A stretch of DNA of 64,000 bases from Chitinophagaceae bacterium. GTDB taxonomy: Bacteria > Bacteroidota > Bacteroidia > Chitinophagales > Chitinophagaceae. The stretch is from contig JAULVY010000089.1 in assembly GCA_032110825.1 (NCBI GenBank), positions 140 to 64,139 on the forward strand. Direction: 5' to 3'. The number at the start of each line of letters is the position of its first letter. The stretch's first letter is position 1. The notes below the pieces were generated by a model. It searched no databases. It saw only the letters and a list, made by a program, of their open reading frames with translations, and was not told the origin of the DNA. This document shows positions 20,844 to 39,534 of this stretch, one piece after another. The position numbers and the translations under genes were made by a program.

Positions 20844-20914
20844 CACGGGCACCTGGATTCGAACCAAGATCAAAGGTTTTGGAGACCTCTATTCTACCAT
20901 TGAACTATGCCCGT
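20844..20914 (-). tRNA. tRNA-Trp(CCA)
   Basis: ACGGGCATAGTTCAATGGTAGAATAGAGGTCTCCAAAACCTTTGATCTTGGTTCGAATCCAGGTGCCCGT; anticodon CCA. Confidence 0.96.
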
Positions 20915-20920
20915 TCTTTA

Positions 20921-20958
20921 AGAAACAAAGTACCCGGACGTGCATCCAGGTACTTTGT
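20921..20958 (-). terminator. Terminator-like hairpin after tuf
   Basis: ACAAAGTACC...GGTACTTTGT stem followed by TTCTT on the - strand. Confidence 0.6.
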
Positions 20959-20984
20959 TGGGAATGTTTATATGCCTTTAGGGC

Positions 20985-22172
20985 TTACTTCAAAATCTCG
21001 GTAACCTGACCAGCACCTACGGTACGTCCGCCTTCGCGAATCGCGAACTTCAGACCTTTTTCCATGGCGATGGGTTGGATCAACTTCACCTTTAGGTTGA
21101 TGTTGTCACCAGGCATAACCATTTCAGTTCCTGCAGGAAGTTCACACTCACCTGTTACGTCTGTAGTACGGAAGTAGAACTGAGGACGGTATTTGTTGAA
21201 GAATGGAGTATGACGTCCACCTTCATCCTTGCTCAATACGTATACTTCACCGTTAAATTCAGTATGCGGAGTGATTGAACCGGGCTTACAGATAACCATA
21301 CCACGACGGATTTGGCTTTTCTCAATACCACGGAGAAGTAAACCAGCATTGTCACCAGCTTCACCTTCATCGAGGAGCTTGCGGAACATCTCAACACCTG
21401 TAACGGTTGAAGTGAGTTTATCTTCCTGCATACCTACGATCTCAACACCTTCACCTACTTTAATTTTACCGCGCTCGATACGACCTGTAGCAACTGTACC
21501 ACGACCAGTGATGGTGAATACGTCTTCTACAGACATCAAGAAAGCAAGATCGACGGGTCTTGGAGGTAGAGGGATGTACTCGTCAACAGCATTCATCAAG
21601 TCGTTAACAGTGGCAACCCACTTTTCTTCACCAGCAAGAGCGCCAGTTGCAGAACCTTTGATGATTGGAGTATTGTCGCCATCGAAACCACGCTTTGTAA
21701 GTTCCTCACGGATTTCCATTTCAACAAGATCAAGCAATTCAGGATCATCAACAAGATCAACCTTGTTCATGAAAACTACAATACGGGGAACACCTACCTG
21801 ACGAGCCAACAAGATGTGCTCTTTGGTTTGAGGCATAGGACCGTCGGTTGCAGCAACCACGAGAATAGCACCATCCATCTGGGCAGCACCTGTAATCATG
21901 TTTTTAACGTAGTCAGCGTGACCTGGACAGTCCACGTGAGCATAGTGACGAGAATCCGTCTCGTATTCTACGTGTGCTGTGTTGATTGTAATACCCCTTT
22001 CTTTTTCTTCAGGAGCACCATCAATCTCATCATACTTCTTTGCCTGAGCAAGACCTCTCTTAGAAAGAATCTCGGTAATGGCAGCAGTCAATGTGGTTTT
22101 ACCATGGTCTACGTGGCCAATGGTACCAATGTTTACGTGGGGTTTGACCCGCTTAAAAGTCTCTTTAGACAT
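20985..22172 (-). CDS. tuf: Elongation factor Tu
   Basis: [27 protein letters not shown] and FMNKVD motifs. Confidence 0.99.
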
Positions 22173-22276
22173 TGTTATCCGTTTTTGTTTGTTTTAACTT
22201 GATTTACCTATTGAAACGGCCGCAAAATTATTGATTTTGGGTCGATTTTCAAAAGTTTTTTCCCTGAAAGGAGTTG

Positions 22277-22348
<72 letters not shown>

Positions 22349-22431
22349 ATGAAGCATGCTCCACCATCCTATCCTGCCCGTTTAGCCACCTGGTTAAAAT
22401 GGTTAGACATGATGCCGTGCAGCGGTAATTG

Positions 22432-22504
22432 AGCGGGAGACGAGGCTCGAACCCGCGACCTATAGCTTGGAAGGCTATCGCTCTACCAACTGAGCTACTC
22501 CCGC
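22432..22504 (-). tRNA. tRNA-Gly(TCC)
   Basis: GCGGGAGTAGCTCAGTTGGTAGAGCGATAGCCTTCCAAGCTATAGGTCGCGGGTTCGAGCCTCGTCTCCCGC. Confidence 0.96.
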
Positions 22505-22549
22505 AAAATACAATCGATAAAAAAGTTCAGACCCATTCCTTTCGAAATG

Positions 22550-22632
22550 TGGGCAGGAGTGGATTCGAACCACTGAAGTCGAAAGACAGCGGATTTACAG
22601 TCCGCCCCATTTGGCCGCTCTGGAACCTGCCC
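22550..22632 (-). tRNA. tRNA-Tyr(GTA)
   Basis: GGGCAGGTTCCAGAGCGGCCAAATGGGGCGGACTGTAAATCCGCTGTCTTTCGACTTCAGTGGTTCGAATCCACTCCTGCCCA; long variable arm. Confidence 0.96.
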
Positions 22633-22651
22633 CTCATGTTTGTCTTCGTTG

Positions 22652-22724
22652 AGCCAGAGAAGGGACTCGAACCCCCGACCAGCTGATTACAAATCAGCTG
22701 CTCTACCAGCTGAGCTACTCTGGC
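22652..22724 (-). tRNA. tRNA-Thr(TGT)
   Basis: GCCAGAGTAGCTCAGCTGGTAGAGCAGCTGATTTGTAATCAGCTGGTCGGGGGTTCGAGTCCCTTCTCTGGC. Confidence 0.96.
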
Positions 22725-22881: not shown

Positions 22882-23181
22882 TCAAGCCAATTGCTTCTCC
22901 TTAACTTTCTTCATTTGAATGAGAATGGAATCCATGGCCTGATCAAAAGACTCCTCAAAAGATTTGGTGGTCTGCTTTACAAAAAGCTCGTGTTTCGGGA
23001 CCTTCACACGAATTTCAGCAACTTTATCTTTGATTTGATGCATTACGTTGTCGAGCTTCAGAAAAACATCCACTTTCATTATTTTATCGTGGTGTTGTGA
23101 CAACTTGGAAATTTTCTTGTTTACATGTTCAACCAATTTGCTGTCGGCGTCAAAATGTACGGCGTGAATGTTTACAGTCAT
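22882..23181 (-). CDS. hpf: Ribosome hibernation factor HPF/RaiA
   Basis: IHAVHFDADSKL, VDVFLKLD and SFEESFD motifs; usual position after xerC in Bacteroidota. Confidence 0.9.
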   Translation of the reverse strand: MTVNIHAVHFDADSKLVEHVNKKISKLSQHHDKIMKVDVFLKLDNVMHQIKDKVAEIRVKVPKHELFVKQTTKSFEESFDQAMDSILIQMKKVKEKQLA

Positions 23182-23277
23182 AGTCCAGGTGTTTAAATTA
23201 ACAAAATAGCAGCGAACTTTTAAGTTACCCCATTTGCCGCAAACCAGAAGAAAAAAATTGCTAAAAAGAACTAAAAA

Positions 23278-24177
23278 TCATCCTTTGGGATGTGCCTTCT
23301 TGTGAATATCGCGAAGGCGCTCAATGCTGTTGTGTGTATAGACTTGAGTTGCGGCCAAACTCGAGTGACCTAGTAGTTCTTTAACAGCATTCAATTCAGC
23401 TCCATTGCTAGTAAGGTGGGTGGCAAAACTGTGTCGCAATACGTGTGGACTTTTCTTCTCTGCTGTTGTTACTTGCGAGAGATAGTATTTCACGATTTGA
23501 TAGATTTGACGGGGGTTAAAAGCTTTTCCTTTTCCGGTGACAAGCAGTTCCGGTTGAGGTTCAAATCCATTTGATTTTTTCTCGTTGATGGATTCTTGGA
23601 TGAGTAATTTTAACTCGTCGGAAATGGGTATGATTCTTTCTTTATTGCCTTTCCCCAAGACTTTAATTTGATTTCGATTGAGTTCGATGTGAACTGTTTT
23701 TAATCCCACCAATTCACTCACACGCATCCCGGTATGGTAAAGCAAAGTCAATATCAAGCGATCCTGCTTTGTATTGTTTCCTTCATCAAAAAAATTGCCT
23801 TTAAAAAGTTTTTCCATCTGATCCGCTTCTACAAAGGAAGGCAGACGTTTGTTGGTTTTTAGTACACTGATGTTTTTTGCAGGATTTGTTTGCAATCGAC
23901 CTTGAATCATGCAAAATTTAAAGAATGACTTTAACGAAGATATTTTGCGGTTTACGCTTCTGGGTGAAAGTTTAATAAGCGTTAATGAAGCCATCCAGGA
24001 TCGAATGATCATGGGATTTAGTTGATTCAATTGATCCGTATCAAATTGGTCTTTTGAAAACTGGAAAAAACCCGTTAAGTCGTCGATATATGCCCGCGTT
24101 GTATGAACAGAAAAGCGTTTTTCAAATTTTAGAAAATCAGCAAAATCAGCTATATCAGGGTGTTGGTATTGGATCAT
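23278..24177 (-). CDS. xerC: Tyrosine recombinase XerC
   Basis: TGMRVSEL, GKGNKERIIP, SPHVLRHSFATHL and LLGHSSLAATQVYTH. Start placed at MIQYQ (24177) because a TAACTTTA -7-like box abuts the track start at 24192. Confidence 0.9.
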   Translation of the reverse strand: MIQYQHPDIADFADFLKFEKRFSVHTTRAYIDDLTGFFQFSKDQFDTDQLNQLNPMIIRSWMASLTLIKLSPRSVNRKISSLKSFFKFCMIQGRLQTNPAKNISVLKTNKRLPSFVEADQMEKLFKGNFFDEGNNTKQDRLILTLLYHTGMRVSELVGLKTVHIELNRNQIKVLGKGNKERIIPISDELKLLIQESINEKKSNGFEPQPELLVTGKGKAFNPRQIYQIVKYYLSQVTTAEKKSPHVLRHSFATHLTSNGAELNAVKELLGHSSLAATQVYTHNSIERLRDIHKKAHPKG

Positions 24178-24237
24178 AAAAAAAGTAGTCATAAAGTTAC
24201 AGAACCTTATGACTACCCATATAGATTTAACCTGGCT

Positions 24238-24435
24238 TTAAGCCTCGATCGATCCGTTGAATATTTGTTGGCGGTAGATTGCTTTGAGTACTTCTCCCCT
24301 TCTTTTGATTGAAGGCTTTATAAACGACTGACGCTCACGCAATTGCAACAAAACCTTCGCTTTTTCGAACTTCTTCTTGTACTTCTTCAGGGCTTTGTCG
24401 ATGTTTTCGCAATCTTTAGAATCGATGATAAGCAT
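24238..24435 (-). CDS. rpsU: 30S ribosomal protein S21
   Basis: IDKALKKYKKK and FIKPSIKRR motifs; TATCTTTG -7 box at 24462-24469. Confidence 0.95.
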   Translation of the reverse strand: MLIIDSKDCENIDKALKKYKKKFEKAKVLLQLRERQSFIKPSIKRRGEVLKAIYRQQIFNGSIEA

Positions 24436-24532
24436 AACGTATTCCTCTTTTTTTAGGAAGGCAAAGATAATACTTGTTCGGATTTCTCCAAAAGGATTCT
24501 AAAAATAGATTGGGAGATCCGAACTTTGTGTC

Positions 24533-25111
24533 ATGTTTACCGGAATAATTGAAGCGGTTGGAACCATTGAAAGTATTGAAAACAATGGGTCTAACAGGCA
24601 TTTTTGGCTTCGTTGTCCTTTTATTGATGAATTGAAAATCGACCAAAGTTTAGCCCATGATGGGGTCTGCTTAACGGTTGATGGGTTAAAAGAGAGCCAA
24701 TATCGAGTTACAGCAGTTGCTGAAACCCTAGAAAAAACGAATTTAATGGACTGGAAACCGGGAAAAAAGGTAAATCTGGAGCGTGGAATGATTTTGGGCT
24801 CTCGAATTGATGGACATTTGGTACAGGGGCATGTGGACTGCACGGGAACATGTATTGAGGTAATAGACCAGGATGGCAGTTGGAAATTCAGCTTTGAATA
24901 CCCCGAAAAATTCAGAAAGTTGATAATCGAAAAAGGATCTATTTGTGTGAACGGAACCAGCCTAACGGCCTTTGATTTGCGAAACAATCAATTCTCGGTT
25001 GCTATCATCCCCTACACGTATAACAACACGAATATCAATCAGTTACAAAAAAACTCCAAGGTGAACTTGGAGTTTGATATGGTGGGGAAGTATATTATGA
25101 GTAAATGTTAG
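24533..25111 (+). CDS. ribE: Riboflavin synthase
   Basis: MFTGII N-terminus, HDGVCLT, GHLVQGHVD, NGTSLT and VNLEFD motifs. Confidence 0.97.
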   Translation: MFTGIIEAVGTIESIENNGSNRHFWLRCPFIDELKIDQSLAHDGVCLTVDGLKESQYRVTAVAETLEKTNLMDWKPGKKVNLERGMILGSRIDGHLVQGHVDCTGTCIEVIDQDGSWKFSFEYPEKFRKLIIEKGSICVNGTSLTAFDLRNNQFSVAIIPYTYNNTNINQLQKNSKVNLEFDMVGKYIMSKC

Positions 25112-25239
25112 GAACAAGCTTCATCACCTGCCCCCGAGGAAGGTTCTCCTAAGGTTTCACATTGGGCGGAACCTTTTTCAGTTTTAGACACAGGGACTAT
25201 ATCTAAAATTGTCGGCTTTTGCCATTGTAACTTGCTCAT
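25108..25239 (-). CDS. Lasso peptide precursor (A), 43 aa: MSKLQWQKPTILDIVPVSKTEKGSAQCETLGEPSSGAGDEACS
   Basis: Translated by hand (ATG 25239, TAA 25110-25108); starts 19 bp after the cyclase stop on the same strand; WxxP leader motif, Thr before the predicted cleavage site, Gly/Ser/acid-rich core, C-terminal Ser. Confidence 0.88.
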   Translation of the reverse strand: MSKLQWQKPTILDIVPVSKTEKGSAQCETLGEPSSGAGDEACS

Positions 25240-25258
25240 AAACTGAATTTATGTAAAA

Positions 25259-27202
25259 CTAAAGAACTTTCCTGAGAAATCGAAATAATGAAAGATTTTC
25301 TATGAATTTATATCCTAATTCATACTTTTTTTCAATATCTGTTTCTGATTTCATTTTTTTATACATCTGAACTAGGTTAATGCCAATCTGACTATTATGA
25401 CTGGAATTAAAAACGTGTAGTGGTTTTGAAAATTCAGAAAGTAAAATACCAATACTTGAGTCATTTGAAATTAGAAATGGTAAATCTCTCATTTGATAAC
25501 GCTTTTCATTTTGATTAATTACCGAAAATTCAAATTTCATTTTTAGTATGCTACTAAGCATATATTTCAAATTCCCATTCTTAAAAAAATAGTACTCAGG
25601 AACTGAAAATGAAAATTTTTGAAATCGAATATCCGCAGTTGGATCAAGCATTAAAATAGCTGATTCCTTGCTTTTTTGGTACCATGACCCAGTTATTAAT
25701 ACTTGATTGTATTTACTATACTTCAATCTAAATTTTTTCGAACTTAAAAAAAAAGATATCCCAACAATAATATCCTCGCTTTTTATTCTTCGTTTTTCAA
25801 ATTTTTTAAAAACAAGTAAGTCTAGTGTTTTGTTGCCAGTTTTTTCATACAAGATATATAACGAGAAAAAAGAATAATAAATCATTCTCAACCAAGAAGC
25901 AAGAGGCCTCTTTATAAAATAGCTCAAGGTAAATCTGAGTGACTTAGAGTACTTTTCTTTGAATTGATTTAAATTATGAAAAGCTTTTTTCCACTTAAAG
26001 TGAATCAAATCATGTAAAACAATATTAGTTGGACAATAAGATAATGTTATGTTCCCAAGTTGTGCGTTTAGAATTATTTTCAAAGAATCATCTTTGGCTT
26101 GCTTAATCATCTTATCTAACCATAATTCATGTGCAGATATTTTAGGATTTAAAAAATCTAATCTCTCATGAGACCTAAACAATTGACCAAAACTATAATT
26201 TGAACAATTTATAGTATGATGAATAATATTTGTAAACTGCTTTGTAAATGAATTTGCAATTATGGATTCATCGTTTTTTTTAATGCCTGGAATTTCAGTA
26301 TCATAAGTATATATTGGAGCAAGTGTATATGCCCAAAGTGAATCTTTCTTATATTCAAGCTCTTTGGATAAATAATAAGTTATGCACGTTGAATCGCTTC
26401 CAGAACTCAAAAGAACTCCACTTTTTACACTAGCAGATAATTTAGAGCGAACTGACAGGTATAACGCAGACTCAAATTCAAAAAAAAGATCGTTCTCGTC
26501 TTTGAAATTCACTTCAGGTTGATCAAATATTTTTTCACTCCAATCAAATCTTTCATATTTTCCCAACGAATAAAATAAACATTCCCCCGCAATTAATTCG
26601 TTCACACTTTTAAACAACGTCTTTCCTATTTCTATTCTTAACTTATTTATCAGTAATCTTGACACTTGATATGAATCGATATCAATTTCTTTGCCTAAAA
26701 AAATTGAAAAAAGACTAATCTCATCCGAGAAATATAAACAACCGTTTAATTCGGTAAAAAATAGCCCACAATTTCCCGTTGCACTTCTATATAATGAAAC
26801 AGATACGACTTCTTTTGAATACACAATAAAAGCCCAATCTCCTTCCAAATGAAGAACGCATTTATCCTTCCATTTTTTATAGGCCATCATGGCCAACAGT
26901 GAGTCGGGAGTCACCTTAAGCTCAGCTTGTGTTAATCCTAATTTGTCCCCAAGCTCATCGCGATAATCCAAACGAAAATGGCCTGCCAATACATAATTTT
27001 TACAGTCGCTAAGTAATGGTTGTCTATCATACTCCGCCGCATTCCCAACTCTTAACATCAGATGTCCTACAGCAAAATGATCATCAACAAAAGTTTCCAG
27101 CCCATCATAGCCGTCTTGATGCACAGCATTTTTCATCTGCTCAAATTGATCTAAGTCAATTCCATCCCCACCCGGTTTGAATATTCCAAAAAAACCACTC
27201 AT
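25259..27202 (-). CDS. Lasso peptide cyclase (C protein; asparagine synthetase-like)
   Basis: Non-catalytic Ntn-like N-terminus (MSG, no Cys1; RLDYRDEL, LEGDWAF), PP-loop variant LSSGSDS and DPTADIR; coupled to B2 by an ATGA overlap. Confidence 0.88.
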   Translation of the reverse strand: MSGFFGIFKPGGDGIDLDQFEQMKNAVHQDGYDGLETFVDDHFAVGHLMLRVGNAAEYDRQPLLSDCKNYVLAGHFRLDYRDELGDKLGLTQAELKVTPDSLLAMMAYKKWKDKCVLHLEGDWAFIVYSKEVVSVSLYRSATGNCGLFFTELNGCLYFSDEISLFSIFLGKEIDIDSYQVSRLLINKLRIEIGKTLFKSVNELIAGECLFYSLGKYERFDWSEKIFDQPEVNFKDENDLFFEFESALYLSVRSKLSASVKSGVLLSSGSDSTCITYYLSKELEYKKDSLWAYTLAPIYTYDTEIPGIKKNDESIIANSFTKQFTNIIHHTINCSNYSFGQLFRSHERLDFLNPKISAHELWLDKMIKQAKDDSLKIILNAQLGNITLSYCPTNIVLHDLIHFKWKKAFHNLNQFKEKYSKSLRFTLSYFIKRPLASWLRMIYYSFFSLYILYEKTGNKTLDLLVFKKFEKRRIKSEDIIVGISFFLSSKKFRLKYSKYNQVLITGSWYQKSKESAILMLDPTADIRFQKFSFSVPEYYFFKNGNLKYMLSSILKMKFEFSVINQNEKRYQMRDLPFLISNDSSIGILLSEFSKPLHVFNSSHNSQIGINLVQMYKKMKSETDIEKKYELGYKFIENLSLFRFLRKVL

Positions 27203-27624
27203 CGTTTTAATGCTTGATGTGTAAATGATGCGACCACTGTAAAGTTATCCATACCGGGTTTACCAGTAACAATATAATTACCCGACTTTACCCATGCGTG
27301 AGCCGACAATCCATTTCCTTCCTTCGCTAATCCAAAATAAATGGTTGAAGGAATTGATCGATTTCCCAACATCCATCTAGCCGTCAATGCCTGATCATAA
27401 CATTTACTGGAATGAAAACTCAATTTAGCAGCTCGTTGTATAGCTACATAAATAGATTTTACCTTCTGCGTGTTAGAGGATGATTGAACTTGCAATTCAT
27501 TTAGCTTACCCAAGTTCGCAGCAATTTTTTTAAATGGGATAATAAGAATAATCAATTTGGAAGTATGAAGGAAGATGAAAGCTTCCACGAATAAAGCAAG
27601 ATCTTGGAATGTTCTGTATTTCAT
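27199..27624 (-). CDS. Lasso peptide leader peptidase (B2, transglutaminase-like)
   Basis: KCYDQALTA (Cys), YFGL and AHAWV (His) motifs; ATGA overlaps with RRE and C. Confidence 0.93.
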   Translation of the reverse strand: MKYRTFQDLALFVEAFIFLHTSKLIILIIPFKKIAANLGKLNELQVQSSSNTQKVKSIYVAIQRAAKLSFHSSKCYDQALTARWMLGNRSIPSTIYFGLAKEGNGLSAHAWVKSGNYIVTGKPGMDNFTVVASFTHQALKR

Positions 27625-27890
27625 TCGATTTGCGAAATAATACCTTTTTCAACCATTTGATTCAATAACTCCTTCGTATCATGCACGCATAATTCTCTAT
27701 CAACTTCAAATTGTTCCATTAATTTTTCAACCAATTGATTGAAATCCATACCATCTTTCAAATGATTCCAAATCACTGAAGCAACAGAATTTAATCCAAA
27801 ATAAAATCCAGAGTCCATGTCTAACATCACGACTTCATCTCCAATTTTGGACTGGATCACCTCTTTTTTATGAATATACCGTTCTGCCAC
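27621..27890 (-). CDS. PqqD-family RiPP recognition element (lasso B1/E)
   Basis: GDEVVMLDMDSGFYFGLNSVASVIWNHL and VDRELCVHDTKELLNQMVEKGII; 89 aa. Confidence 0.94.
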   Translation of the reverse strand: MAERYIHKKEVIQSKIGDEVVMLDMDSGFYFGLNSVASVIWNHLKDGMDFNQLVEKLMEQFEVDRELCVHDTKELLNQMVEKGIISQIE

Positions 27891-27944
27891 GATTTAAATT
27901 ATTGATTAAAATTACATTCTTTAAATCTTACCTGCAACCAATAG

Positions 27945-28847
27945 TTATGAATTTAATAATTCTGCAACTGCATCTACAACTTCTTGAACATGATCCCCTT
28001 CTGCTGGTCGTGAAACAACAAAAGCATTTACTTGCCCCGCAAGCAGACTTAAAACCTTAAAATGCTCTTCCTTTAGATTCATATGCCCCAAATTTTCACC
28101 TCGATACGCATTGGAATCTAATCGCTGGAACAGCTCAATACCCGTTAAAGAACTAACCGAAACTTCGCTGCATTCATCGGACTTTTGTAAAAAAATGGCT
28201 TGCCTTGGTATATTAGGTTCCATGGAAAATGTTTCGTGAAAATAAAGTCCATACTTCTCCATATCAGGACGAATTTTTCGATCTACACGATCCCAAATCT
28301 TAAACCGATCTATCGTTTCTTTCCAAAGTTTAATCATGGGATATGAGGAATCTATCCAGACCTCATCTGCGTGTATTCTGGGTACAACTACATCATCAGA
28401 AATGACTTCGAATCCCTGCTCAAGCAATCCAGCCAACGTTGTGGACTTCCCCGAACCAGAATGACCAAAGACTAAAATGGTCTTTTCAGATTTTCGAACT
28501 GCGGCACAATGCAATGGAATTTGCCCTTTTTGCTGCAATGCAGCTGCAAAAGCATTGGATAAACAAAAAAGTCTCACTGCATCATTCGATGCATTTTGAA
28601 ATGGTTTGATCACAATTGAGTTACCACCCTGTACCTCATACTGGGCAACATGGGGTACTATAAGTTTATAAGATACCTCCTCAACATGCACAAACGATTT
28701 TTCTCTCAATGAATCAAAATTAGAATCAGAATATCCATCTTGAACTGAAACCATTAATTCAAATGAATCTTCTGATGAGATGGGCATTAACTCAGGAAAG
28801 GAGATTTCCGATGCAAGCTTTAACCCATATGCCCAATAATGAAACAC
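27945..28847 (-). CDS. HPr-kinase-like lasso peptide kinase (PadeK/PsmK-type)
   Basis: PLHCAAV, Walker A GHSGSGKST, ISDD Walker B, and SSYPMIKLW. Confidence 0.88.
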   Translation of the reverse strand: MFHYWAYGLKLASEISFPELMPISSEDSFELMVSVQDGYSDSNFDSLREKSFVHVEEVSYKLIVPHVAQYEVQGGNSIVIKPFQNASNDAVRLFCLSNAFAAALQQKGQIPLHCAAVRKSEKTILVFGHSGSGKSTTLAGLLEQGFEVISDDVVVPRIHADEVWIDSSYPMIKLWKETIDRFKIWDRVDRKIRPDMEKYGLYFHETFSMEPNIPRQAIFLQKSDECSEVSVSSLTGIELFQRLDSNAYRGENLGHMNLKEEHFKVLSLLAGQVNAFVVSRPAEGDHVQEVVDAVAELLNS

Positions 28848-28853
28848 TTCATT

Positions 28854-28873
28854 TATCTTTAGGCATAAAGATA
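28854..28873. promoter_or_regulatory. Perfect inverted repeat TATCTTTA-GGCA-TAAAGATA in the 42-bp divergent intergenic region of the lasso cluster
   Basis: Each arm resembles a -7 box (TAnnTTTG) read outward. Confidence 0.55.
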
Positions 28874-28889
28874 CTAACTAAGTTTTCGA

Positions 28890-30662
28890 ATGCAACATCG
28901 ATCGGACGCAAAAAGATTCTTCCGTGAAATAAGAAGTATGACTACCGAAATACTTTCGGTTGATATGCCTGTTTCTATTGGTGTAATATTATCTAAACTA
29001 ATTGTTTCGATTCTACCCCTATCCATCCTGTGGTTGATAAAAACACTGGTTGATAAAATCAGTAGTCTCCAAATTGATTTTTACGAACTTCTATTCTACA
29101 TTATTCTTTTCTGTATTATCCAAATCGCCATCTTGGTAATGCAACAAGTCAGTTCATTTTGGGAATCTAGATTGCAAAACAAAACCCTAGACTATTTTTC
29201 AAATCGTATCATTGAAAAATCAGTTTCGATTGATTATACCTATTTTGAAAATCCTGCATTTCAGAATACATTGTTTTTGGCTCAAAATCAAGCTCGTTTT
29301 AGAATCAATCAATTGCTACCTGCCATTTATGGGAGCTTTGGCAATGGCATTTCTCTCATCTTCATCATTGCCTTTTTCATTGGAATCAAAGCTTACTTTT
29401 TTTTATTGATACTCATTCTTGCATTACCCATAACGCTTCAAAAATGGTACGAAGGAAAAAAAATGAATGACCTTGACTTTACATTATCCAGCAAGGAAAG
29501 AGAAAGCAATTACATCTTCCAATCTCTTACCGGATTGCAGTCAGCAAAAGAAGTGAGGCTGTATAATTTTGAAAAATCATTTCAAAACAAATACAACCAG
29601 ATTCGGACATTGATTGTAGGAGAAAAAATGAAAATTCAAAAAAGCTCAATTAAAAAAAACACAGTCATCGGTGTATTAGAAATTTTATTTGCCGGCGGCT
29701 TATTTGCTTATTTGGGTTATGATGTTTTGAGAGGCAGTATAAGTTTGGGTTTATTTATATTGTACCTACAGGGTACTCAACGCCTACAAACAATTTCAAA
29801 AGGCTTTTTCCAGTCCCTTTTGCAACTCTTTCAATTACGACTTTTTGTTAAGGATTTACATGCATTCCTAAATTTGAGTGAAAACAAAAACATAAATCCG
29901 AGTATACAAGAATTAGAAATTAACTCTTTATCTATTCGCAATCTTTCATTTCGCTATCCAGGTAATACCATACACACTCTAGAAAACATAAATTTAAATG
30001 CCCAAAAAGGTAAAATTATCGCTTTAGTCGGCGAAAATGGATCGGGCAAATCTACGCTTGTGAAATTACTCGCTGGCTTATATAACCCGGCCCCAGATTC
30101 AATCTTTGTTAATAACAATGATCTACTTTCCGTCCCCAAACCAGTTTGGTATAGGCAATCGGCTGTTTTATTTCAAGATTTTGAAAAGTATTTTTTTGAA
30201 GTGGACAAAAACATTCATTTTGACTTGAATGAAAGCAACAATTTAAGAAAGGAAAGTATTGCCGCAGCCTCACAATCCTTGGCCCACGAATTTATCCTGA
30301 ATTTGAGTAAACAATACGATACCCGTTTGGGAAATTTATACGAAGGTTCTGAACAGTTGAGCGGAGGACAGTGGCAAAAACTGGCTTTAGCTAGAATATT
30401 TTTTAAAGATCGGCCGGTTGTAATCTTAGATGAACCCAGTAGTGCTTTAGATGCATTTGCAGAGTTATCTCTTTATGAAAATATCAAGAATAGTTTTAGC
30501 AATAAGATCGTCATTATCGTTTCGCATCGATTGTACAACCTAAAAATAGCTGACTACATCTATGTGCTGTCGCATGGAAAAATTGCAGAAGAAGGAAATT
30601 TTAATGATTTGATTCAGCAAAACGGATTATTTTATTCGATGTACGAAAAACAAAAAATCTAA
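28890..30662 (+). CDS. ABC exporter (TMD+NBD), lasso D protein
   Basis: N-terminal TM helices, GENGSGKST, LSGGQWQKLALAR, ILDEPSSALD and VSHRL. Confidence 0.9.
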   Translation: MQHRSDAKRFFREIRSMTTEILSVDMPVSIGVILSKLIVSILPLSILWLIKTLVDKISSLQIDFYELLFYIILFCIIQIAILVMQQVSSFWESRLQNKTLDYFSNRIIEKSVSIDYTYFENPAFQNTLFLAQNQARFRINQLLPAIYGSFGNGISLIFIIAFFIGIKAYFFLLILILALPITLQKWYEGKKMNDLDFTLSSKERESNYIFQSLTGLQSAKEVRLYNFEKSFQNKYNQIRTLIVGEKMKIQKSSIKKNTVIGVLEILFAGGLFAYLGYDVLRGSISLGLFILYLQGTQRLQTISKGFFQSLLQLFQLRLFVKDLHAFLNLSENKNINPSIQELEINSLSIRNLSFRYPGNTIHTLENINLNAQKGKIIALVGENGSGKSTLVKLLAGLYNPAPDSIFVNNNDLLSVPKPVWYRQSAVLFQDFEKYFFEVDKNIHFDLNESNNLRKESIAAASQSLAHEFILNLSKQYDTRLGNLYEGSEQLSGGQWQKLALARIFFKDRPVVILDEPSSALDAFAELSLYENIKNSFSNKIVIIVSHRLYNLKIADYIYVLSHGKIAEEGNFNDLIQQNGLFYSMYEKQKI

Positions 30663-31762
30663 TTGCTTTTTATCCTTCGGAATACCCAAACAAATGGCTT
30701 GAGAGGGATGTAGAGAAAAAACAATGTATCCGGCAGAGGAATGATTTTCCAATCCAACGGAGATATCATGTATTTCAATAAAAGTCGAATATTCATTATT
30801 TGTTTAGATAAACTAAAAAGATACTGAAAGTGTTTCCATCGATTTGAATCATTGGCATTAAAACCATTCTCGTCGCTCATTAACGTAAAAATATAGTCTA
30901 ACTTTCTTCTGTGTAAAGTATTGTCATTAAGATATTGAAAGCCTATTGGCAATGGTTGAGAAAAAATAGCAAGTAAGACTTTTAAAGAAATTTCAAGATG
31001 TTCCAAACATTCTAATTCAATTGCCCTCTGCCGAACAGAAGTCCAGTTTAAAGTTGATTGTCGAATAATCATGAATAAATCGACCAACCACTTTAATCTA
31101 AACCACCCATGCTCGGTTCCATGTACTGATAAATACAATAGCAATTCTACCTCATCAAGCGAACGAACATCCTTTAGATTAAACCCTCCCAGTGCTCCCC
31201 TCCATTTCCAATGCAATTCTACAATTGCTGGAGATGTTGTGCCGTCCCCAAAAAAAGGCATGTCGTGATTCACGTAATGTAAAAATCTCTTCTGTGTAGG
31301 AGTATACAATTCATAGTCTTTCTCCCTTTTTAAGCCAAAATCAACCAACAAATCTGATACTAGTTCAATATCTCCCTCCGAAACCAATAGATCAACATCC
31401 AAAACATGCCGCAAAGCTAAATCAGTGTAATAACGTTCTGACAAAGACACCCCTTTCAAAAAAACATGTTTGATTTTTCTTTCATTTAGGCGTTGTCCAA
31501 ACTGCAATTGAAATCGCTTAGCGATTAAAGCTGTTTTTTGATTTTGCAGTACTTCCTGCGTCCATTTCAAATGAAATGATTCACTGAACTGCTTTGAATC
31601 TGAAAGTTTAGAATACACAAGAGAACCTACTCGATGCCTATGCATCAAATTACTTAAGTTGGTTTCATCGATTTGCGAATCAACTTCAGAAAGTTTAGTC
31701 GAACTGCATTGAATTGTTTCAAGAATGAGTTTAAATTCGGGTGATGCCAATGCTGAATACAT
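30659..31762 (-). CDS. Nucleotidyltransferase family protein (NTP_transf_5; PadeN/PsmN-like)
   Basis: FLKGVSL...YY...RHVLDVDLLV, VELHW, and HGTEHGWFRLKWLVD. Confidence 0.85.
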   Translation of the reverse strand: MYSALASPEFKLILETIQCSSTKLSEVDSQIDETNLSNLMHRHRVGSLVYSKLSDSKQFSESFHLKWTQEVLQNQKTALIAKRFQLQFGQRLNERKIKHVFLKGVSLSERYYTDLALRHVLDVDLLVSEGDIELVSDLLVDFGLKREKDYELYTPTQKRFLHYVNHDMPFFGDGTTSPAIVELHWKWRGALGGFNLKDVRSLDEVELLLYLSVHGTEHGWFRLKWLVDLFMIIRQSTLNWTSVRQRAIELECLEHLEISLKVLLAIFSQPLPIGFQYLNDNTLHRRKLDYIFTLMSDENGFNANDSNRWKHFQYLFSLSKQIMNIRLLLKYMISPLDWKIIPLPDTLFFLYIPLKPFVWVFRRIKSN

Positions 31763-31771
31763 AAGAATTCA

Positions 31772-34700
31772 TTATCGCATCAGGTACATTTTCCCATAAC
31801 CGCTTTTGAAATAGCTATCGGTATTGTAACTGCCTGCTCGCAATTTATCAATTTGCTTTCCGTTAATATTGGCCATCACTCGATACAGATAAACACCATT
31901 GCCTACTGGCTGTCCATATTGATCTCTGCCGTCCCATTTGTACTCAGTTATGTTATTGCCAATACGAATCGGACCAAGTTCCTCCTTTGTTATTTCTCGG
32001 ATAATCTTACCGGTAACGGTGAGAATTTGAATCCTAAAATGTGTGGGGAGTTCAGAGCCTGTAAGTGTAAATACAAAAGCAGTTGAAGTTGTAAAGGGAT
32101 TTGGATAATTCAGAAGATTGGTGATCATGGACTTGGTGTACACCTGAAACAGGACACTATAAACAATAGCCCCAGACAAATTTCCACTTCTGTCTTTTGC
32201 TGTAACAATCAGTTCATACTCTCCGTCTTCTGTCAAAAAGGGTTTAAACAATATCGAAGCCTCGTTATTATTGCCTCCAAGCGGATTGGTAGACGGATTA
32301 AATTGAAGGGTATCGTTATCAAATCGAATAGTTCGTAATGAGCCATCCGGATAACGTAGCTGGACTTTAAATAAACTAGTATCATTTAGTGCTAGATACT
32401 TAGAATCATCTTTAAGTTTAATTAAAATCGTTGGCTTGGGACTAACGATGTCCTTATTCAAAATATGAACGCCATCAAACGTTACATCCAAGTTAGGTGC
32501 GTAGGTATCGGCACGGACATGTACTACCTTGGTAAGGTAATTGTTAAAAAGATTTTGTTCAGGCTGATGATAATTGGGATTAAAATTGATGAAAATGGTG
32601 TTATCACCTGCCAGTGTTTTCGTGTCAACAGTAAAATCAATTAAAATCGTATCTCCCTTTATAATAGGCTTTCGCAATTCATTCAAAACAATCCGCGTAT
32701 TGTTTTTAGGATCTGTTAAGGTCATATAAACCATCACACTATCAAAAGGAAGATCGCTAATATTCTTAAATGCAATTGAAAACCGCATCGGCTCGCCTAT
32801 TTCTAAAGTATCTTTTACCATCGTTATGACTCCGGAAGTCAACGAGCCTTCAGGAACAGGACTATATTTCACTTGAAGGTATCTAGGTTGCCATGGGGAA
32901 TAGTTTAACGTGTCAGAACTCTCATGCTGTATTCTTAAAAATGGGAACTGTTGAGCATCAATAAAAGTCAAACTTGTATCCTTTATTAAGTCCTCACTTT
33001 GATAGAGCAAAGTTTCAACGGAAGAACCAGATAAACCAAAAACCTTATAAGCAATTTTATCTTTTGAATTTTTTTCTTGGGAAGAGCCCTTCCAATGGAT
33101 AGACCCCCAGGACTTAGCTGGCCCCACTAATTGATGACTGTTACGACCACTACTAATAATAGACTCATATGTTATTTCACTATTTAAAACATCAGTAGCA
33201 CTTTCACCTATTTTTTGATCTAACACCTTCCATTCCCCATTTGATAACTTCTCAGCGACAAATAAAAAGGGCACACTTTTCGTAAACGAATCAACAAGTG
33301 TAAAACCGATTGATTTTAGTCTATGATAAATAGAATTATTCGAGCCATAAATTAATGTATCCTGCTGCCATTTATCTATAAATTCTGGACTACTATTATA
33401 CGATAATGATGCCCAATTATTTAAGACAAGCAAAGTTCCGGATGGTACTTTATCTAAAAACTCCATTGCAAATTTACGATAGGAGCTTTGATTGTAGTAA
33501 TACCAAAATTGATACAGTTTTACAGGCCTACACTGATTAGGCATAATACTATTGTAAAGTGTGCCGCTGGTATTGTATGGATTTTCAATTGGACTTGCCT
33601 TGGCCATATCAATTAAAGTAAATTCAAATGAATTAACTGCATTGAAACAGCTACTTGAATAGAGTAGATCTAAATTATTAGCTACAGTATTAAACCCATA
33701 AGGGTGCAGCCTTGAAGTAACCCTTAGATTTTGAACTTCAGTATCAAATGCTAGGAATCGATTTGTATTATACTTTAAGTCTGTATATGTGTTTTTTAAA
33801 TACTGATAATAATGCGACTGATTCCAACCCGTAGAACTATTGCTTAGGTAAACAAAAGAAGAGGTAGATGACCATTGGACAGGCATGGATGAACTTGTTG
33901 TTGCACGTGCCACTCTCCAATAAAAAACGAGACTATCTCGTAATTGCAACGATGGACTAAACTCAATTAATCCACCTAAGCTGGTCTGGTTTTGGGTAAC
34001 CTTCAATGGTGAATTGAATAGCTCCGTTGTATCTACTTCCAATATAAAATTGGTTGGTGTTTGAAAAAACAAACTTGTAGAAGCTATCAGTTTAACCGAA
34101 TTGGTATTTACAATAGCAAACTGCTGTGGGCTAACTGGTCTAACATCGTCTTCAGAAATCGAAAATACTTTTGAAGCCGAGTTGTTGATGTTGGTTATTT
34201 CTTTTATCAAATCGCTTCCATCCAAACTCACCAAAATCTTATTTTGACCTTTATCATTTAACGGGTTTATCGGGACAGAAAACTCAATGGAGTCCACATT
34301 GAATAGTGGCTTACGAATTGCATCGTAAAGTACAACTACAGTTCCATCCGGCAACTCACGCTTGATCGTTACCCGCAATGAATCCCGTGTAGCCTTACCG
34401 ATATTGTAAAACTTGACTTTTAAATCAAAGTTGCTGTTGGTGATGTTCAATGGGTTCGGACTAACTCGAATCAATGGCTCTTCAATGGCATAATCTGGAA
34501 GTGGCTGAGGATAAAGTGAAACAGCAGGGTCACCACCAAGTAAGATTTGTTCAACAGTAATTTGATTAAAGAAATCAAAACTACCCCCTTGAGTTAAGAC
34601 ATCATTCAACGTATTAAGCTGGAGTTCACCAATATTAGACATATAATCCTGCTGTGAAATTCTCCTATACAAATTATACGTATACAGATTCAAATAATTA

Positions 34701-36844
34701 ACAATCCCAAAATGGGTACTGGCTAAAAAACCAATACTACCGCGCTTAGGAGTTAATACATAGTTTTCTGTTATCGATTTTTTCCCAGTGGTAGAACGTA
34801 ATGTGTCGTAAATGAAAAAGTTACCAGAGTTACAACCATTTGCCAAGAACAAAGGGTATTTACCGGGGTTCTCAAAAATAGTTGGGTCATCTAAGTTAAA
34901 TTCCATCGAGTTGGCAGATGAATGCCCGAAATAGGTAATCATCCCCATCCCTTCATTGAATAGAGAGGATAAAGCCCCTGAATTTACAAGGTCTATACCC
35001 GCAGAAGTAACTTTCTCAAAATTATATACTTTGGCCCCATATGAAGTATCTTTTACCAAATTACCAGCGGTATTCATATAGCCCAGGATGGTAGCTTGCA
35101 AAAACGGATCGCCACCTCCAATTACATGGGCAAAGTTTTTCATCCATGCCTTGTCCTGAACCGTTTGATTGGCTGAATTTAGTACGAGATTATGCTCTTT
35201 AACTTTTTCCAGATATGCCATCAACTCATCTCCTGTAGTTACTGAAATCCTCCCAATAGGAGTTTCGGGTGTAGGATCCAAAGAGGTTGATGCTAATATA
35301 TTATCTGAACCCGGATTGCCAAAAGTAGGTATCAGGTTTATCGATTCTGTTACTCCTCGGTTTTCATTGTATCGATATTGGTCGTATGTAATCCCTTTAC
35401 CAACCAAAAGAATATACTTTATAGGCAGTGAATATTTGGTCCGCACAAACTCTAAAAAGTTTTTAATAGACAGCGGGTGCTTTTTAATTCCAAAAGCAAA
35501 TTGATCCACCAATTCATCTATATCATAAATCCCAACCTTATAAGACCCACCTTCTACACTTGATCGGTAGGTTTGATAATTTTGCAAGGCATCACCAGAA
35601 GAACTTTTTCGAATACTATTATGCGAAATAATCAAATAATCGCCCTGAGCTGCCGCAAGTGAATAGTCAACAAATTTCTTTCGCTGAAGTCCGGATACAT
35701 TTTTAAACTGCGCGGGCGATGTTGCTAAAAGCACAAAATTTCTTTGTAAACCAGCAGGTAAGGCAAAGCGAAATTTTCCTGCAACAGTCATATCCGCCTG
35801 ATACCGCTTGTTGTTGGTAAGATCATACAAAACAGGTGCCGCACTGTTACTATTGAAATTGGTTATTTCTAAAAAATTACCTGCTGTTGTTGCTGGTAGC
35901 GAAAATTCAAAGACCTGTGATCCCCCAAAATCAAATTGCCGGGGATAGGTTAACTCGTATTTACCCAATGTTATGCGATCATTGGATACGTCTGAACCAT
36001 TGATTATTCTTATGGTATCTACTGTTCGTCCAATCTGAGATTTTGTAAACCCAAAACTCCGAATTAAAGAAACGAAATAATTCATTGGATTATCAAAAAC
36101 AAAATTCCCGTTAATCATTACCTGCAGTCTTCTGGGATTTTGAGCATTACCAAAAGCTGTTATTCTAAAACTAGGGTCAGGGCCTAGGGGTGAAACTTTT
36201 AAATCACTGTATTGCTCAACCAAAGGATTTGATGGGTTGATATTTCTGCTGCTCCAGCCTTCTCCATTATCGTAACTAGATGAATACACATATACACCCA
36301 CTACGGCAGCCAGACCTGGATTGATCTGATCTTTAAAATTTCTAGAAAGGGTGTGCATGAAATAAGGCTCAACAGGAAGTGTATTTGAGCTAACGTTGTT
36401 TGCCGAAGCTGTAATTCGTGCATTGGGATTAGCCGAATTTACGGTAAGAAAATATGCAGCAGTATCCGTTTGCAAACTGAATTTATCGGAAAGTTGATGA
36501 GCTGGTACTTTATAAAGAGCTGCATCCACTTTTCCATCGTTCATTTTTCCATAAAACTCCAAATAATCTGCTGAACCCAATTGTCCGGATGAAACACTGG
36601 TATACAATGGAACTTCTACTCCGTTTCTCCACAATTGAAAATACTCGGCATTGGTTGTAGATAATCCCGCAGCTTGTAGCGTTAACATGGGAATACGATA
36701 CAATCCGTCTTCCCCTACTTTAAATTTATAATAGGTCTTGCTATAATCAATCCATGCGTTATTGAATTGAGCTTGCAACTGTGTTATACTGAACAGAAGA
36801 ACTGCCAGACCTAGAAAAAATTTATATGCTACTCCTCTAGTCAT
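31772..36844 (-). CDS. Large C25 (gingipain/PorU-like) cysteine peptidase with T9SS C-terminal domain
   Basis: Signal peptide; YFGHSS (His) and ANGCNSG (Cys) dyad; C-terminal NYPNPF...WDGRD...GVYLYR domain; coupled to porV. Confidence 0.85.
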   Translation of the reverse strand: MTRGVAYKFFLGLAVLLFSITQLQAQFNNAWIDYSKTYYKFKVGEDGLYRIPMLTLQAAGLSTTNAEYFQLWRNGVEVPLYTSVSSGQLGSADYLEFYGKMNDGKVDAALYKVPAHQLSDKFSLQTDTAAYFLTVNSANPNARITASANNVSSNTLPVEPYFMHTLSRNFKDQINPGLAAVVGVYVYSSSYDNGEGWSSRNINPSNPLVEQYSDLKVSPLGPDPSFRITAFGNAQNPRRLQVMINGNFVFDNPMNYFVSLIRSFGFTKSQIGRTVDTIRIINGSDVSNDRITLGKYELTYPRQFDFGGSQVFEFSLPATTAGNFLEITNFNSNSAAPVLYDLTNNKRYQADMTVAGKFRFALPAGLQRNFVLLATSPAQFKNVSGLQRKKFVDYSLAAAQGDYLIISHNSIRKSSSGDALQNYQTYRSSVEGGSYKVGIYDIDELVDQFAFGIKKHPLSIKNFLEFVRTKYSLPIKYILLVGKGITYDQYRYNENRGVTESINLIPTFGNPGSDNILASTSLDPTPETPIGRISVTTGDELMAYLEKVKEHNLVLNSANQTVQDKAWMKNFAHVIGGGDPFLQATILGYMNTAGNLVKDTSYGAKVYNFEKVTSAGIDLVNSGALSSLFNEGMGMITYFGHSSANSMEFNLDDPTIFENPGKYPLFLANGCNSGNFFIYDTLRSTTGKKSITENYVLTPKRGSIGFLASTHFGIVNYLNLYTYNLYRRISQQDYMSNIGELQLNTLNDVLTQGGSFDFFNQITVEQILLGGDPAVSLYPQPLPDYAIEEPLIRVSPNPLNITNSNFDLKVKFYNIGKATRDSLRVTIKRELPDGTVVVLYDAIRKPLFNVDSIEFSVPINPLNDKGQNKILVSLDGSDLIKEITNINNSASKVFSISEDDVRPVSPQQFAIVNTNSVKLIASTSLFFQTPTNFILEVDTTELFNSPLKVTQNQTSLGGLIEFSPSLQLRDSLVFYWRVARATTSSSMPVQWSSTSSFVYLSNSSTGWNQSHYYQYLKNTYTDLKYNTNRFLAFDTEVQNLRVTSRLHPYGFNTVANNLDLLYSSSCFNAVNSFEFTLIDMAKASPIENPYNTSGTLYNSIMPNQCRPVKLYQFWYYYNQSSYRKFAMEFLDKVPSGTLLVLNNWASLSYNSSPEFIDKWQQDTLIYGSNNSIYHRLKSIGFTLVDSFTKSVPFLFVAEKLSNGEWKVLDQKIGESATDVLNSEITYESIISSGRNSHQLVGPAKSWGSIHWKGSSQEKNSKDKIAYKVFGLSGSSVETLLYQSEDLIKDTSLTFIDAQQFPFLRIQHESSDTLNYSPWQPRYLQVKYSPVPEGSLTSGVITMVKDTLEIGEPMRFSIAFKNISDLPFDSVMVYMTLTDPKNNTRIVLNELRKPIIKGDTILIDFTVDTKTLAGDNTIFINFNPNYHQPEQNLFNNYLTKVVHVRADTYAPNLDVTFDGVHILNKDIVSPKPTILIKLKDDSKYLALNDTSLFKVQLRYPDGSLRTIRFDNDTLQFNPSTNPLGGNNNEASILFKPFLTEDGEYELIVTAKDRSGNLSGAIVYSVLFQVYTKSMITNLLNYPNPFTTSTAFVFTLTGSELPTHFRIQILTVTGKIIREITKEELGPIRIGNNITEYKWDGRDQYGQPVGNGVYLYRVMANINGKQIDKLRAGSYNTDSYFKSGYGKMYLMR

Positions 36845-37977
36845 TAATATGCAAATTCATTTTTAGGGAACACAAATTTCAGAGAAAATAAATGCGTATA
36901 CAAAGGATTTGATTGGTTAGCCAAATTGGTAAAGGCATAATCAATTTCAACATTCTTCACTTTAAAACCTACTCCCATTCCAGGTTGATATATCCAAACT
37001 TTTTGTTGGTTCGTTACATCACCATCTTTCAAGCCTCGTTGAAAATTATAGATCCCTGCCCGACCAAATACCGATTTCTTATACCCAAATTCAATCCCTA
37101 ATTTAGGATCCATATTTACCAAGGATGAACTCAACAGAACATTTCTTCGACCATCAAAGGTAAGATCGAAGTTCATTTCAGCCATAAAATGTGTAGTTAG
37201 CGATATATCAGTATAATAAAACCCTCCCAACGTCAATCGAGGTGCCGTTAATTCAATGGAACGAATCGGTATATCATTTTGTGCTAAATAGAGAGCCTCT
37301 TTTTCTTTCTCTGTAAATCTAAAATTCCATGCATTAAAGGTAGTAGTGACATCTTTAGCAACAACTCCTACCCCAAATTTTTTAGTCCGGTATTGCAACC
37401 CTGCATCCAAACCAAATCCCCAAGCTTTGGCAAAACTCCCCACGCTTCGATGGATGATTTTTGCATTGGTTCCAAAAGAAAAGGTTTTTTCATCATCACC
37501 ATAAATTACTTGAGCATACGAGAGCAAGAGCGCGTAGTCGGCCGAAGAAAAAGATTTGATGTTGTTGTAATTGATGGTGCCATCGGGTTCTACTAAAAAA
37601 AGCGTATTGGGTATATCATCAACTGCAAATCGCATAAGAGATACCCCCAGGGTTCTTGTTACGTATTTTGGATCTCCGATAGGAAGTGCTACTGCAGCAA
37701 AATCATATTTCCCAATTCCTGCGAAGTATTCGGCATGCATGAGAGAACCTGTAGAAAAATCTTTGACTTCGGTTAATCCAGCTGGATTCCAATAACCGGA
37801 TGTAGCATCTCCGGTACCAGCTACCTGAGCACCACCTAAGGACAAACCCTTGGCACCTGCACCAATATTCAGGAATTCATTGGAATACTTCCTGAACTGG
37901 GCATTAGCCTCCACAAAAGCCATTCCCAAAAATAAAATGGCCAGAAGCCTGATTCTATTTTTCATCTGATTTGACAA
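36844..37977 (-). CDS. porV: PorV/PorQ-family outer-membrane beta-barrel (T9SS shuttle-like)
   Basis: KYSNEFLNIGAGAKGLSLG, YWNPAGL and IDYAFT motifs. Confidence 0.75.
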   Translation of the reverse strand: MSNQMKNRIRLLAILFLGMAFVEANAQFRKYSNEFLNIGAGAKGLSLGGAQVAGTGDATSGYWNPAGLTEVKDFSTGSLMHAEYFAGIGKYDFAAVALPIGDPKYVTRTLGVSLMRFAVDDIPNTLFLVEPDGTINYNNIKSFSSADYALLLSYAQVIYGDDEKTFSFGTNAKIIHRSVGSFAKAWGFGLDAGLQYRTKKFGVGVVAKDVTTTFNAWNFRFTEKEKEALYLAQNDIPIRSIELTAPRLTLGGFYYTDISLTTHFMAEMNFDLTFDGRRNVLLSSSLVNMDPKLGIEFGYKKSVFGRAGIYNFQRGLKDGDVTNQQKVWIYQPGMGVGFKVKNVEIDYAFTNLANQSNPLYTHLFSLKFVFPKNEFAY

Positions 37978-39463: not shown

Positions 39464-39534
39464 TGCCCGATAGTATAATGGTAGTACGACAGATTTTGGT
39501 TCTGTTTGTCTTGGTTCGAATCCAGGTCGGGCAA
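39464..39534 (+). tRNA. tRNA-Gln(TTG)
   Basis: TGCCCGATAGTATAATGGTAGTACGACAGATTTTGGTTCTGTTTGTCTTGGTTCGAATCCAGGTCGGGCAA. Confidence 0.96.

Follow-up and report, generated by a model that had tools for sequence, protein, structure and literature searches.

A predicted lysine-anchored lasso peptide precursor in a kinase-associated gene cluster of a freshwater Chitinophagaceae-like bacterium

Introduction

In paeninodin-type lasso peptide systems, a kinase phosphorylates the terminal Ser of the precursor, and a review of kinase-associated lassos describes this enzyme as acting first, before the leader is removed. The pseudomycoidin cluster of Bacillus pseudomycoides encodes the kinase PsmK together with an annotated nucleotidyltransferase, PsmN, and the C-terminal Ser is (poly)phosphorylated and then hexosylated. 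Thr at position -2 of the cleavage site is a processing determinant in lasso precursors described in the literature, and BsfA from Bradymonas sediminis, along with other Ile/Val(-2) precursors, carries a changed but conserved residue at this position in front of a Gly1-Asp8 core. Class V lasso peptides such as lariocidin B and gelatinamin A have a bond between a Lys side chain and the C-terminal carboxylate, which is made by a clostripain-like transpeptidase (GelP) and forms a second ring after the canonical ring that joins the N-terminus to Asp8. Here, we describe a 43-codon open reading frame (ORF) in a 64,000-nucleotide stretch of a Chitinophagaceae bacterium assembly (GCA_032110825.1, contig JAULVY010000089.1, positions 140 to 64,139; hereafter, the window), which is predicted to encode the precursor of a lasso peptide whose ring is anchored on Lys.

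Genome mining and mechanistic models of lasso peptides follow a rule in which the precursor is cut two residues past Thr and the ring joins residue 1 to an acid at positions 7-9. The family to which this ORF belongs appears to break that rule. Moreover, the combination of a Lys ring anchor, a Cys pair linking the ring or an N-terminal arm to the tail, and a terminal Ser targeted by a kinase has not been previously reported.

Results

The initial annotation had placed a hidden precursor at this site without stating its strand, and the translation of the minus strand, MSKLQWQKPTILDIVPVSKTEKGSAQCETLGEPSSGAGDEACS, agrees exactly with the sequence that it quoted. No longer ORF exists in the same frame, and the ORF begins 19 nucleotides after the stop codon of the cyclase gene (C). 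In approximately 45 related loci, most of them in metagenome-assembled genomes of Chitinophagaceae, a small ORF is found right behind C in the same orientation, wherever the contig extends that far. This position, its recurrence in the same place, and a conserved leader and core architecture lead us to conclude, from sequence comparison, that the ORF is a conserved lasso peptide precursor gene (gene A) and not a chance ORF. Its product is predicted to split into the leader MSKLQWQKPTILDIVPVSKTE and the core KGSAQCETLGEPSSGAGDEACS.

A word-indexed homology search with the 43-residue peptide alone returned only the peptide itself, and relatives were gathered through cyclase homologues and their flanks. 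The resulting locus set (L001-L077) comprises 20 genome loci, almost all from metagenome-assembled genomes of Chitinophagaceae, 52 metagenome loci, and five further contigs. A profile search with 38 sequences returned mostly sequences that were already known, and an exhaustive profile search added approximately 30 representatives. The family counts given below cover 72 distinct precursors, namely the window peptide and 71 relatives; the database annotation of the relatives is "hypothetical protein".

The leader motif W-x-x-P is invariant in all 72 precursors, as is a Thr located 10 residues past the Pro (11 in the subclade of the window peptide). Behind Thr-x, a single Lys is present in 69 of the precursors, and an acid follows at Lys+6 in 62 of the 72, at Lys+7 in nine, and at Lys+5 in one. 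The pattern K-x5-[D/E] is thereby found in 62/72 precursors, whereas 3000 shuffles gave 7.9 on average and 17 at most. The pairing of Lys with the acid six positions downstream as predicted ring partners is the best-supported part of the model. Two Cys occur in 66 peptides, none in five, and one in a single peptide, while Ser is the last residue in 71.

The closest relatives, L073-L076, have cyclases that are 35%-39% identical and peptides that are 34%-49% identical to those of the window. With a slash marking the predicted cleavage site, their cores read TQ/KIGTNCDSIG...NPCS, TA/KLGSQCEAVG...NPCS, TL/KVGTACETIG...NPCS, and TE/KVGSACESLG...EPCS, and the four share the pattern T-x/K-x-G-x-x-C-[D/E]...C-S. 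All five members of the window subclade retain Lys1, Cys6, an acid at position 7, Cys at the penultimate position, and a C-terminal Ser, along with Gly10 and Gly3 of the relatives (Gly2 in the window). Glu7 of the window core, counted from Lys1, agrees with the lasso rule of Asp/Glu at 7, 8, or 9, and the core contains exactly two Cys, with Cys6 located in the predicted ring and Cys21 in the tail. The initial annotation had proposed cleavage at TE/K, a Lys1-Glu7 ring, a Cys6/Cys21 pair, and a terminal Ser22, and had suggested looking beside B2 and C genes for homologous precursors, to see whether T-x-K-G, both Cys, and the terminal Ser are conserved. Homologous precursors were found at such sites, and, as far as sequence can tell, conservation in the four closest relatives argues for the proposed features, joined for the terminal Ser by the kinase gene of the cluster.

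A core that starts elsewhere had also been suggested, with a nine-residue ring from Ser3 to Glu11. This spacing is legal, and a MAFFT alignment put Cys6 of the window in the column of the Cys that precedes Lys in most relatives and Glu11 in the column of the invariant Lys, in which case K1...E7 would be a chance arrangement; by our estimate, K-x5-acid arises by chance in approximately 14% of permutations of the window core. We nevertheless regard a different core start as extremely unlikely, as the four closest relatives keep K-x-G-x-x-C-[D/E] directly behind Thr-x and have neither a Lys at position 11 nor a Glu11-equivalent acid in register with a Ser or Gly start. Upon reading these four sequences, the MAFFT placement of Glu11 was rejected, and the Ser3-Glu11 ring was rejected because it is not conserved in them. 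A Gly2 start was likewise rejected because it leaves no acid at positions 7-9.

Lys stands directly behind Thr-x only in the window subclade. The remaining 67 precursors have 1-12 residues, mostly 6-10, as a spacer between Thr-x and Lys, and the position right behind Thr-x varies greatly (D, A, T, G, N, S, V, or E). When positions are counted from Thr-x+1, 46 of these 67 spacer-type relatives have no acid at 7-9, whereas all of them have one when the count starts at Lys. The textbook ring from Thr-x+1 therefore cannot form in those 46 and is ruled out there. The first Cys lies within the spacer in 59 precursors, 2-6 residues after Thr-x, and the second Cys lies near the C-terminus. A by-eye comparison of arm length (Cys to Lys) with tail length (acid to Cys) gave no clear trend. 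The residue before Lys is Gly in 37/67, followed by Asn, Ala, and Ser, and no residue is conserved at position -2 of Lys.

Precursors from the Sulfurovum outgroup are canonical (TL/GGSG...E8). In an unbootstrapped neighbor-joining tree based on the cyclase sequences, the zero-spacer members form a monophyletic clade that is sister to L002 (spacer length 1) and nested among spacer-type lineages, and thus the zero-spacer architecture of the window looks derived. Judged by their sequences, the 71 relatives would always have a Lys-anchored ring, sometimes beyond the textbook lasso mechanism. In the spacer-type relatives, either B2 would cut elsewhere or the cyclase would use the side-chain amine of Lys. 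The question of an alpha or an epsilon amine, which the initial annotation had raised, is thus a real one, as Lys is not the residue after Thr-x in 67 relatives.

It is possible, and we hold the view tentatively but seriously, that B2 cuts after Thr-x throughout the family and that N-epsilon of Lys is joined to the Asp/Glu six residues downstream. The alpha-amine would remain free, an N-terminal arm of 0-12 residues, usually containing the first Cys, would be disulfide-bonded to the tail, and the window peptide, having no arm, would keep a free N-terminus on Lys1. The missing acids at 7-9 in 46/67 spacer-type relatives, all of which have Lys-x(4-6)-acid, point in this direction. Lys is invariant, while the residue after Thr-x varies (D, A, T, G, N, S, K, V, or E), the distance from Thr to W-x-x-P is fixed whatever the spacer length, and the lack of a conserved residue at -2 of Lys is consistent with a cut further upstream. 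The number of Cys is two or zero in 71/72 precursors only when the spacer is counted, which suggests, if indirectly, that the spacer is kept. By our own count, epsilon-linked rings of 6, 7, and 8 residues contain 23, 26-27, and 29 atoms, inside the range of 22-29 atoms of known 7-9-residue rings, compared with 19, 22-23, and 25 atoms for alpha-linked rings. The zero-spacer clade, being nested among spacer types, would also inherit their chemistry, although the tree is without support values. Against this stands the literature searched, in which no lasso cyclase using a side-chain amine was found and the sole reported Lys side-chain isopeptide in lassos, that of class V, comes from a separate enzyme, a clostripain-like transpeptidase. 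No domain of that kind was found among the nine cluster and flanking proteins scanned by Pfam.

Alternatively, the window peptide may be a canonical lasso in which cleavage occurs at TE/K and the alpha-amine of Lys1 attacks Glu7, with the spacer-type relatives either cut right before Lys or closed into much larger alpha-linked rings; we consider this plausible, although again short of an even chance. The N-terminal alpha-amine is used by all characterized lasso peptides according to reviews, and an invariant residue is expected at core position 1. The mostly small residues before Lys also fit a cut at that point, and in the window peptide and its four closest relatives, Lys1 is the sole departure from the canonical model. 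However, B2 would have to cut 2-14 residues past an invariant Thr with no conserved residue at -2, even though B2 is approximately 50% identical across the family. In addition, 59/72 cores would be left with a single Cys and the pairing of Cys would go unexplained, most rings would have seven residues and one would have six, which is at or below the known minimum, and there would be just as little precedent for alpha-linked rings of 8-20 residues.

For the window peptide itself, an epsilon link of Lys1 is a tentative possibility, and the canonical alpha link of Lys1 is a possibility that we entertain with similar reserve. At the level of the family, cleavage by B2 after Thr-x with use of Lys N-epsilon and retention of the spacer as an arm comes close to an even chance. 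A B2 cut right before Lys, which would make the spacer part of the leader, is rather unlikely, large alpha-linked rings of 8-20 residues from Thr-x+1 to the conserved acid are very unlikely, and other explanations taken together are unlikely. The epsilon link explains most observations with one mechanism, yet without precedent, and the pre-Lys cut and the large ring each require an unprecedented property of their own.

Whichever amine is used, the ORF is probably the precursor of a kinase-associated lasso peptide pathway, whose steps are drawn from homology, conservation, and characterized kinase-type lasso systems. B1 would bind W6-x-x-P9 of the leader, and the HPr-kinase-like enzyme would phosphorylate Ser43 at the C-terminus of the precursor. 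B2 (Cys75/His109) is predicted to cleave behind Thr20-Glu21 and release a core of 22 residues, after which cyclase C would adenylate the side chain of Glu7 for attack by an amine of Lys1, giving a ring of seven residues. Cys6 in the ring and Cys21 in the tail may then pair, and the tail, which lacks a bulky plug, would be held by this class-III-like lock. The NTP_transf_5 protein may further decorate the phospho-Ser in the manner of PsmN in pseudomycoidin, and the product would be exported by the ATP-binding cassette (ABC) transporter. The features that identify a lasso precursor are present, namely neighboring genes for an RRE and leader peptidase and for a cyclase, and a leader with W-x-x-P and Thr at -2 of the predicted site. 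The paeninodin type is indicated by an HPr-kinase-like gene with His, Lys, Asp, and Asp. Since Pfam and NCBIfam scans found no ATP-grasp domain among the cluster proteins, the product is not a graspetide.

A branched-cyclic and unthreaded peptide, or one in which the Cys are reduced or otherwise used (metal binding or intermolecular bonds), would have no class-III-like lock. The tails are rich in small residues, with F, W, Y, R, H, or K in just 31/72, the five Cys-free relatives have tails of 5-6 residues, and no thiol oxidoreductase gene lies within the cluster. However, Cys are paired in 66/72 peptides with one always near the C-terminus, and the four Cys-free relatives that could be located occupy the same type of locus (K, B1, and B2 are present in L009, L033, and L034, and the short L032 contig shows C only). 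We consider such a product quite improbable.

Several points weigh against the proposed pathway. The best NCBIfam match of C is the lasso peptide isopeptide bond-forming cyclase, but its score lies far below the cut-off of 525 bits, and only residues 1-440 match, while the C-terminal 200 or so residues do not. The relative P0164 has a single Cys. Two short metatranscriptome contigs were found, both on B1/B2/C, and none covers gene A. Seven-residue rings are rare among known lassos. The initial annotation had called Lys1 unusual, and neither Lys as residue 1 of a characterized lasso peptide nor a primary ring through a Lys side chain was found in the literature searched, the coverage of which was incomplete.

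The features of the locus are listed in Table 1. The genes form a tightly packed minus-strand operon in the order kinase-B1-B2-C-A with the precursor ORF last, and B1/B2 and B2/C overlap by 4 nucleotides each. Pfam and NCBIfam agree on the gene assignments; B2 scores above its curated cut-off, and B1 and C score below theirs. At least 97% of 62 B2 sequences retain Cys75 and His109. For the kinase (K), at least 97% of 45 sequences share His113, the P-loop GxSGxGKST (G128-T136, including Lys134), and Asp151-Asp152. A review describes a catalytic His-Lys-Asp-Asp motif in lasso kinases, to which these residue types correspond when mapped onto PadeK by inspection. Domain scans of the ABC exporter did not find a peptidase domain.

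Table 1. Predicted features of the lasso peptide locus, with window coordinates
Feature	Coordinates	Strand	Evidence
Precursor gene A, 43 codons + TAA, ATG start	25108-25239	minus	translation and syntenic conservation
Predicted leader, residues 1-21	25177-25239	minus	
Predicted core, residues 22-43	25111-25176	minus	
Stop codon of gene A	25108-25110	minus	
Leader motif W6-Q-K-P9, RRE-binding type Y/WxxP	25213-25224	minus	W and P invariant in alignments A2-A4
Thr20, position -2 of predicted cleavage T-E/K	25180-25182	minus	invariant in 72/72 precursors
Predicted ring segment K1-G-S-A-Q-C6-E7 (Lys22-Glu28 of precursor)	25156-25176	minus	K-x5-[D/E] in relatives
Cys21 of the tail, predicted to pair with Cys6, and Ser22 at the C-terminus, predicted to be phosphorylated	25111-25116	minus	
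Terminator-like hairpin, 10-bp stem then T run, 33 nucleotides past precursor stop	25051-25075	minus	consensus scan
C, Asn-synthase-like lasso cyclase, 647 amino acids	25259-27202	minus	Pfam GATase_7/Asn_synthase; NCBIfam cyclase 140 bits
B2, leader peptidase, 141 amino acids	27199-27624	minus	Transglut_core3; NCBIfam lasso_biosyn_B2 75.9 bits, cut-off 33
B1, PqqD-like RRE, 89 amino acids, GTG start	27621-27890	minus	PqqD; lasso_PqqD_Bac 63 bits, below cut-off 80
K, HPr-kinase-like peptide kinase, 300 amino acids	27945-28847	minus	weak Hpr_kinase_C and HprK_rel_A matches
D, ABC exporter, 590 amino acids, divergent from operon	28890-30662	plus	ABC_tran and ABC_membrane
NTP_transf_5 nucleotidyltransferase-like protein, 367 amino acids	30659-31762	minus	PF14907, E = 1.8e-36; syntenic in relatives

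The glutaminase-like residues 1-125 of C (26828-27202) are far better conserved than the remainder of the cyclase. Across 26 sequences, MSGFFGIF, HFRLDYRDEL, and GDW do not vary, and partial cyclases encoded at other loci show a 60%-70% match to this N-terminal part of the window protein. C carries Ser where Asn synthase B has its N-terminal nucleophile Cys, and the Asn-Gly-Glu oxyanion motif is presumably not kept, judged against E. coli AsnB.

A convergent ribE-like gene (24533-25111, Lum_binding) overlaps the precursor gene at the stop codons (25108-25111, TTAG), and the terminator-like hairpin of the lasso operon sits within the 3' end of the ribE-like coding sequence. The hairpin comes from a consensus scan in which the number of sites did not exceed that in shuffles. 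In a sigma-70 promoter scan, sites were no more numerous than in shuffles, and Bacteroidota promoters differ from that consensus. An Rfam scan of the whole window found only tRNAs. A minus-strand cluster of five tRNAs (20844-22724), four of them inside 22277-22724, adjoins a 395-residue ORF (20985-22172), and further tRNAs are present at 1195-1268 and 39464-39534.

In approximately 50 Chitinophagaceae-type loci, the gene order is a PorU2-like sortase, nucleotidyltransferase, ABC, K, B1, B2, C, and A, followed by ribE and/or rpsU, and xerC. The cluster occupies a single chromosomal site between a PorU2/PorV2-like type IX secretion system pair and ribE/rpsU/xerC/hpf (window 22882-37977), and the ABC exporter is absent from some loci (e.g., L014, L015, L027, L030, and L048). 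Compared with the window, the flanking housekeeping genes are 55%-80% identical and B1 is approximately 60% identical, but C is only 30%-39% identical. The cluster is therefore chromosomal and seems to be vertically inherited, with C and A evolving rapidly. The core peptide is hypervariable across the syntenic loci.

In L015 (approximately 9940-10076), no stop codon separates the cyclase ORF from the precursor MNNNLETWSKPTLVELNTNETATLCVGKSATNDDAEVGSTCSES, which shares its frame, and the same holds for L053 and L054. These three loci could encode a C-A fusion protein or use an internal translation start. A distant cluster at 6784-6954 of L064/L067 (contigs longer than 600 kb), with a cyclase that is 26% identical, encodes a Lys-type precursor, ...AWSTPEIVDLNIGEATQ/NVAF-KTASAPD-GGPSFADYNS, which has a four-residue spacer and K-x5-D, contains no Cys, and ends in Ser. 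From this precursor, the Lys anchor may extend beyond Chitinophagaceae.

The window sequence is present in freshwater metagenomes, and its source is a freshwater Chitinophagaceae-like bacterium. At the B1/B2/C junction (27136-27733), two metatranscriptome contigs of the same freshwater study show at least 99% identity to the window, hinting that the operon is transcribed in situ, with DNA carry-over as a possible source of these contigs.

Discussion

No characterized lasso peptide from Bacteroidota was found in the literature searched, the coverage of which was incomplete. If the epsilon link proves true, the family would represent a lasso topology and a cyclase chemistry that have so far not been described. 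A cyclase that uses a side-chain amine could also provide lasso scaffolds with free and extendable N-termini, which would be of use in engineering. That the cluster keeps one chromosomal site throughout a freshwater Chitinophagaceae lineage while its core is hypervariable suggests an ecological role under diversifying selection.

The Cys6/Cys21 layout of the window peptide resembles that of the class III lasso BI-32169, which reportedly has one disulfide linking Cys6 in the ring with a C-terminal Cys or one that adjoins the C-terminus. BI-32169 is said to be an actinomycete product that closes its ring between Gly1 and Asp9 and lacks both a kinase and a terminal Ser. In contrast to this peptide, most relatives of the window peptide have the first Cys ahead of the ring-forming Lys and not in the ring.

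In class V lassos, a Lys side-chain amine takes part in an isopeptide bond, as it may here. However, the present locus has no GelP-type gene, and Lys is the candidate nucleophile of the primary ring. The BsfA type offers another example of a kinase-associated lasso cluster that bends the canonical leader rule, although Thr is kept in the present family and it is the ring-forming residue that is shifted away from Thr in most members.

The pairing of a kinase with a nucleotidyltransferase recalls pseudomycoidin. The likeness is one of gene content. The Lys anchor and the Cys pair seen here have not been reported for pseudomycoidin.

The gene content and leader resemble those of the group of paeninodin (Paenibacillus dendritiformis), ThcoA, and SyanA, which likewise combine split B1/B2 genes, a C cyclase, an HPr-kinase-like gene with His, Lys, Asp, and Asp, and an ABC exporter. 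Related clusters of that group also contain a nucleotidyltransferase, and their precursors have a short leader with Thr at -2 and end in Ser. The distance from Pro to Thr in the paeninodin leader is reportedly 10 as well. Paeninodin itself is said to start with Ala, to have a nine-residue ring, and to contain no Cys. The present family differs from it in having Lys as residue 1 or ring anchor, a spacing of 7, and two Cys, in placing gene A behind C instead of at the head of the cluster, in matching HprK-related models weakly with its kinase, and in belonging to the phylum Bacteroidota.

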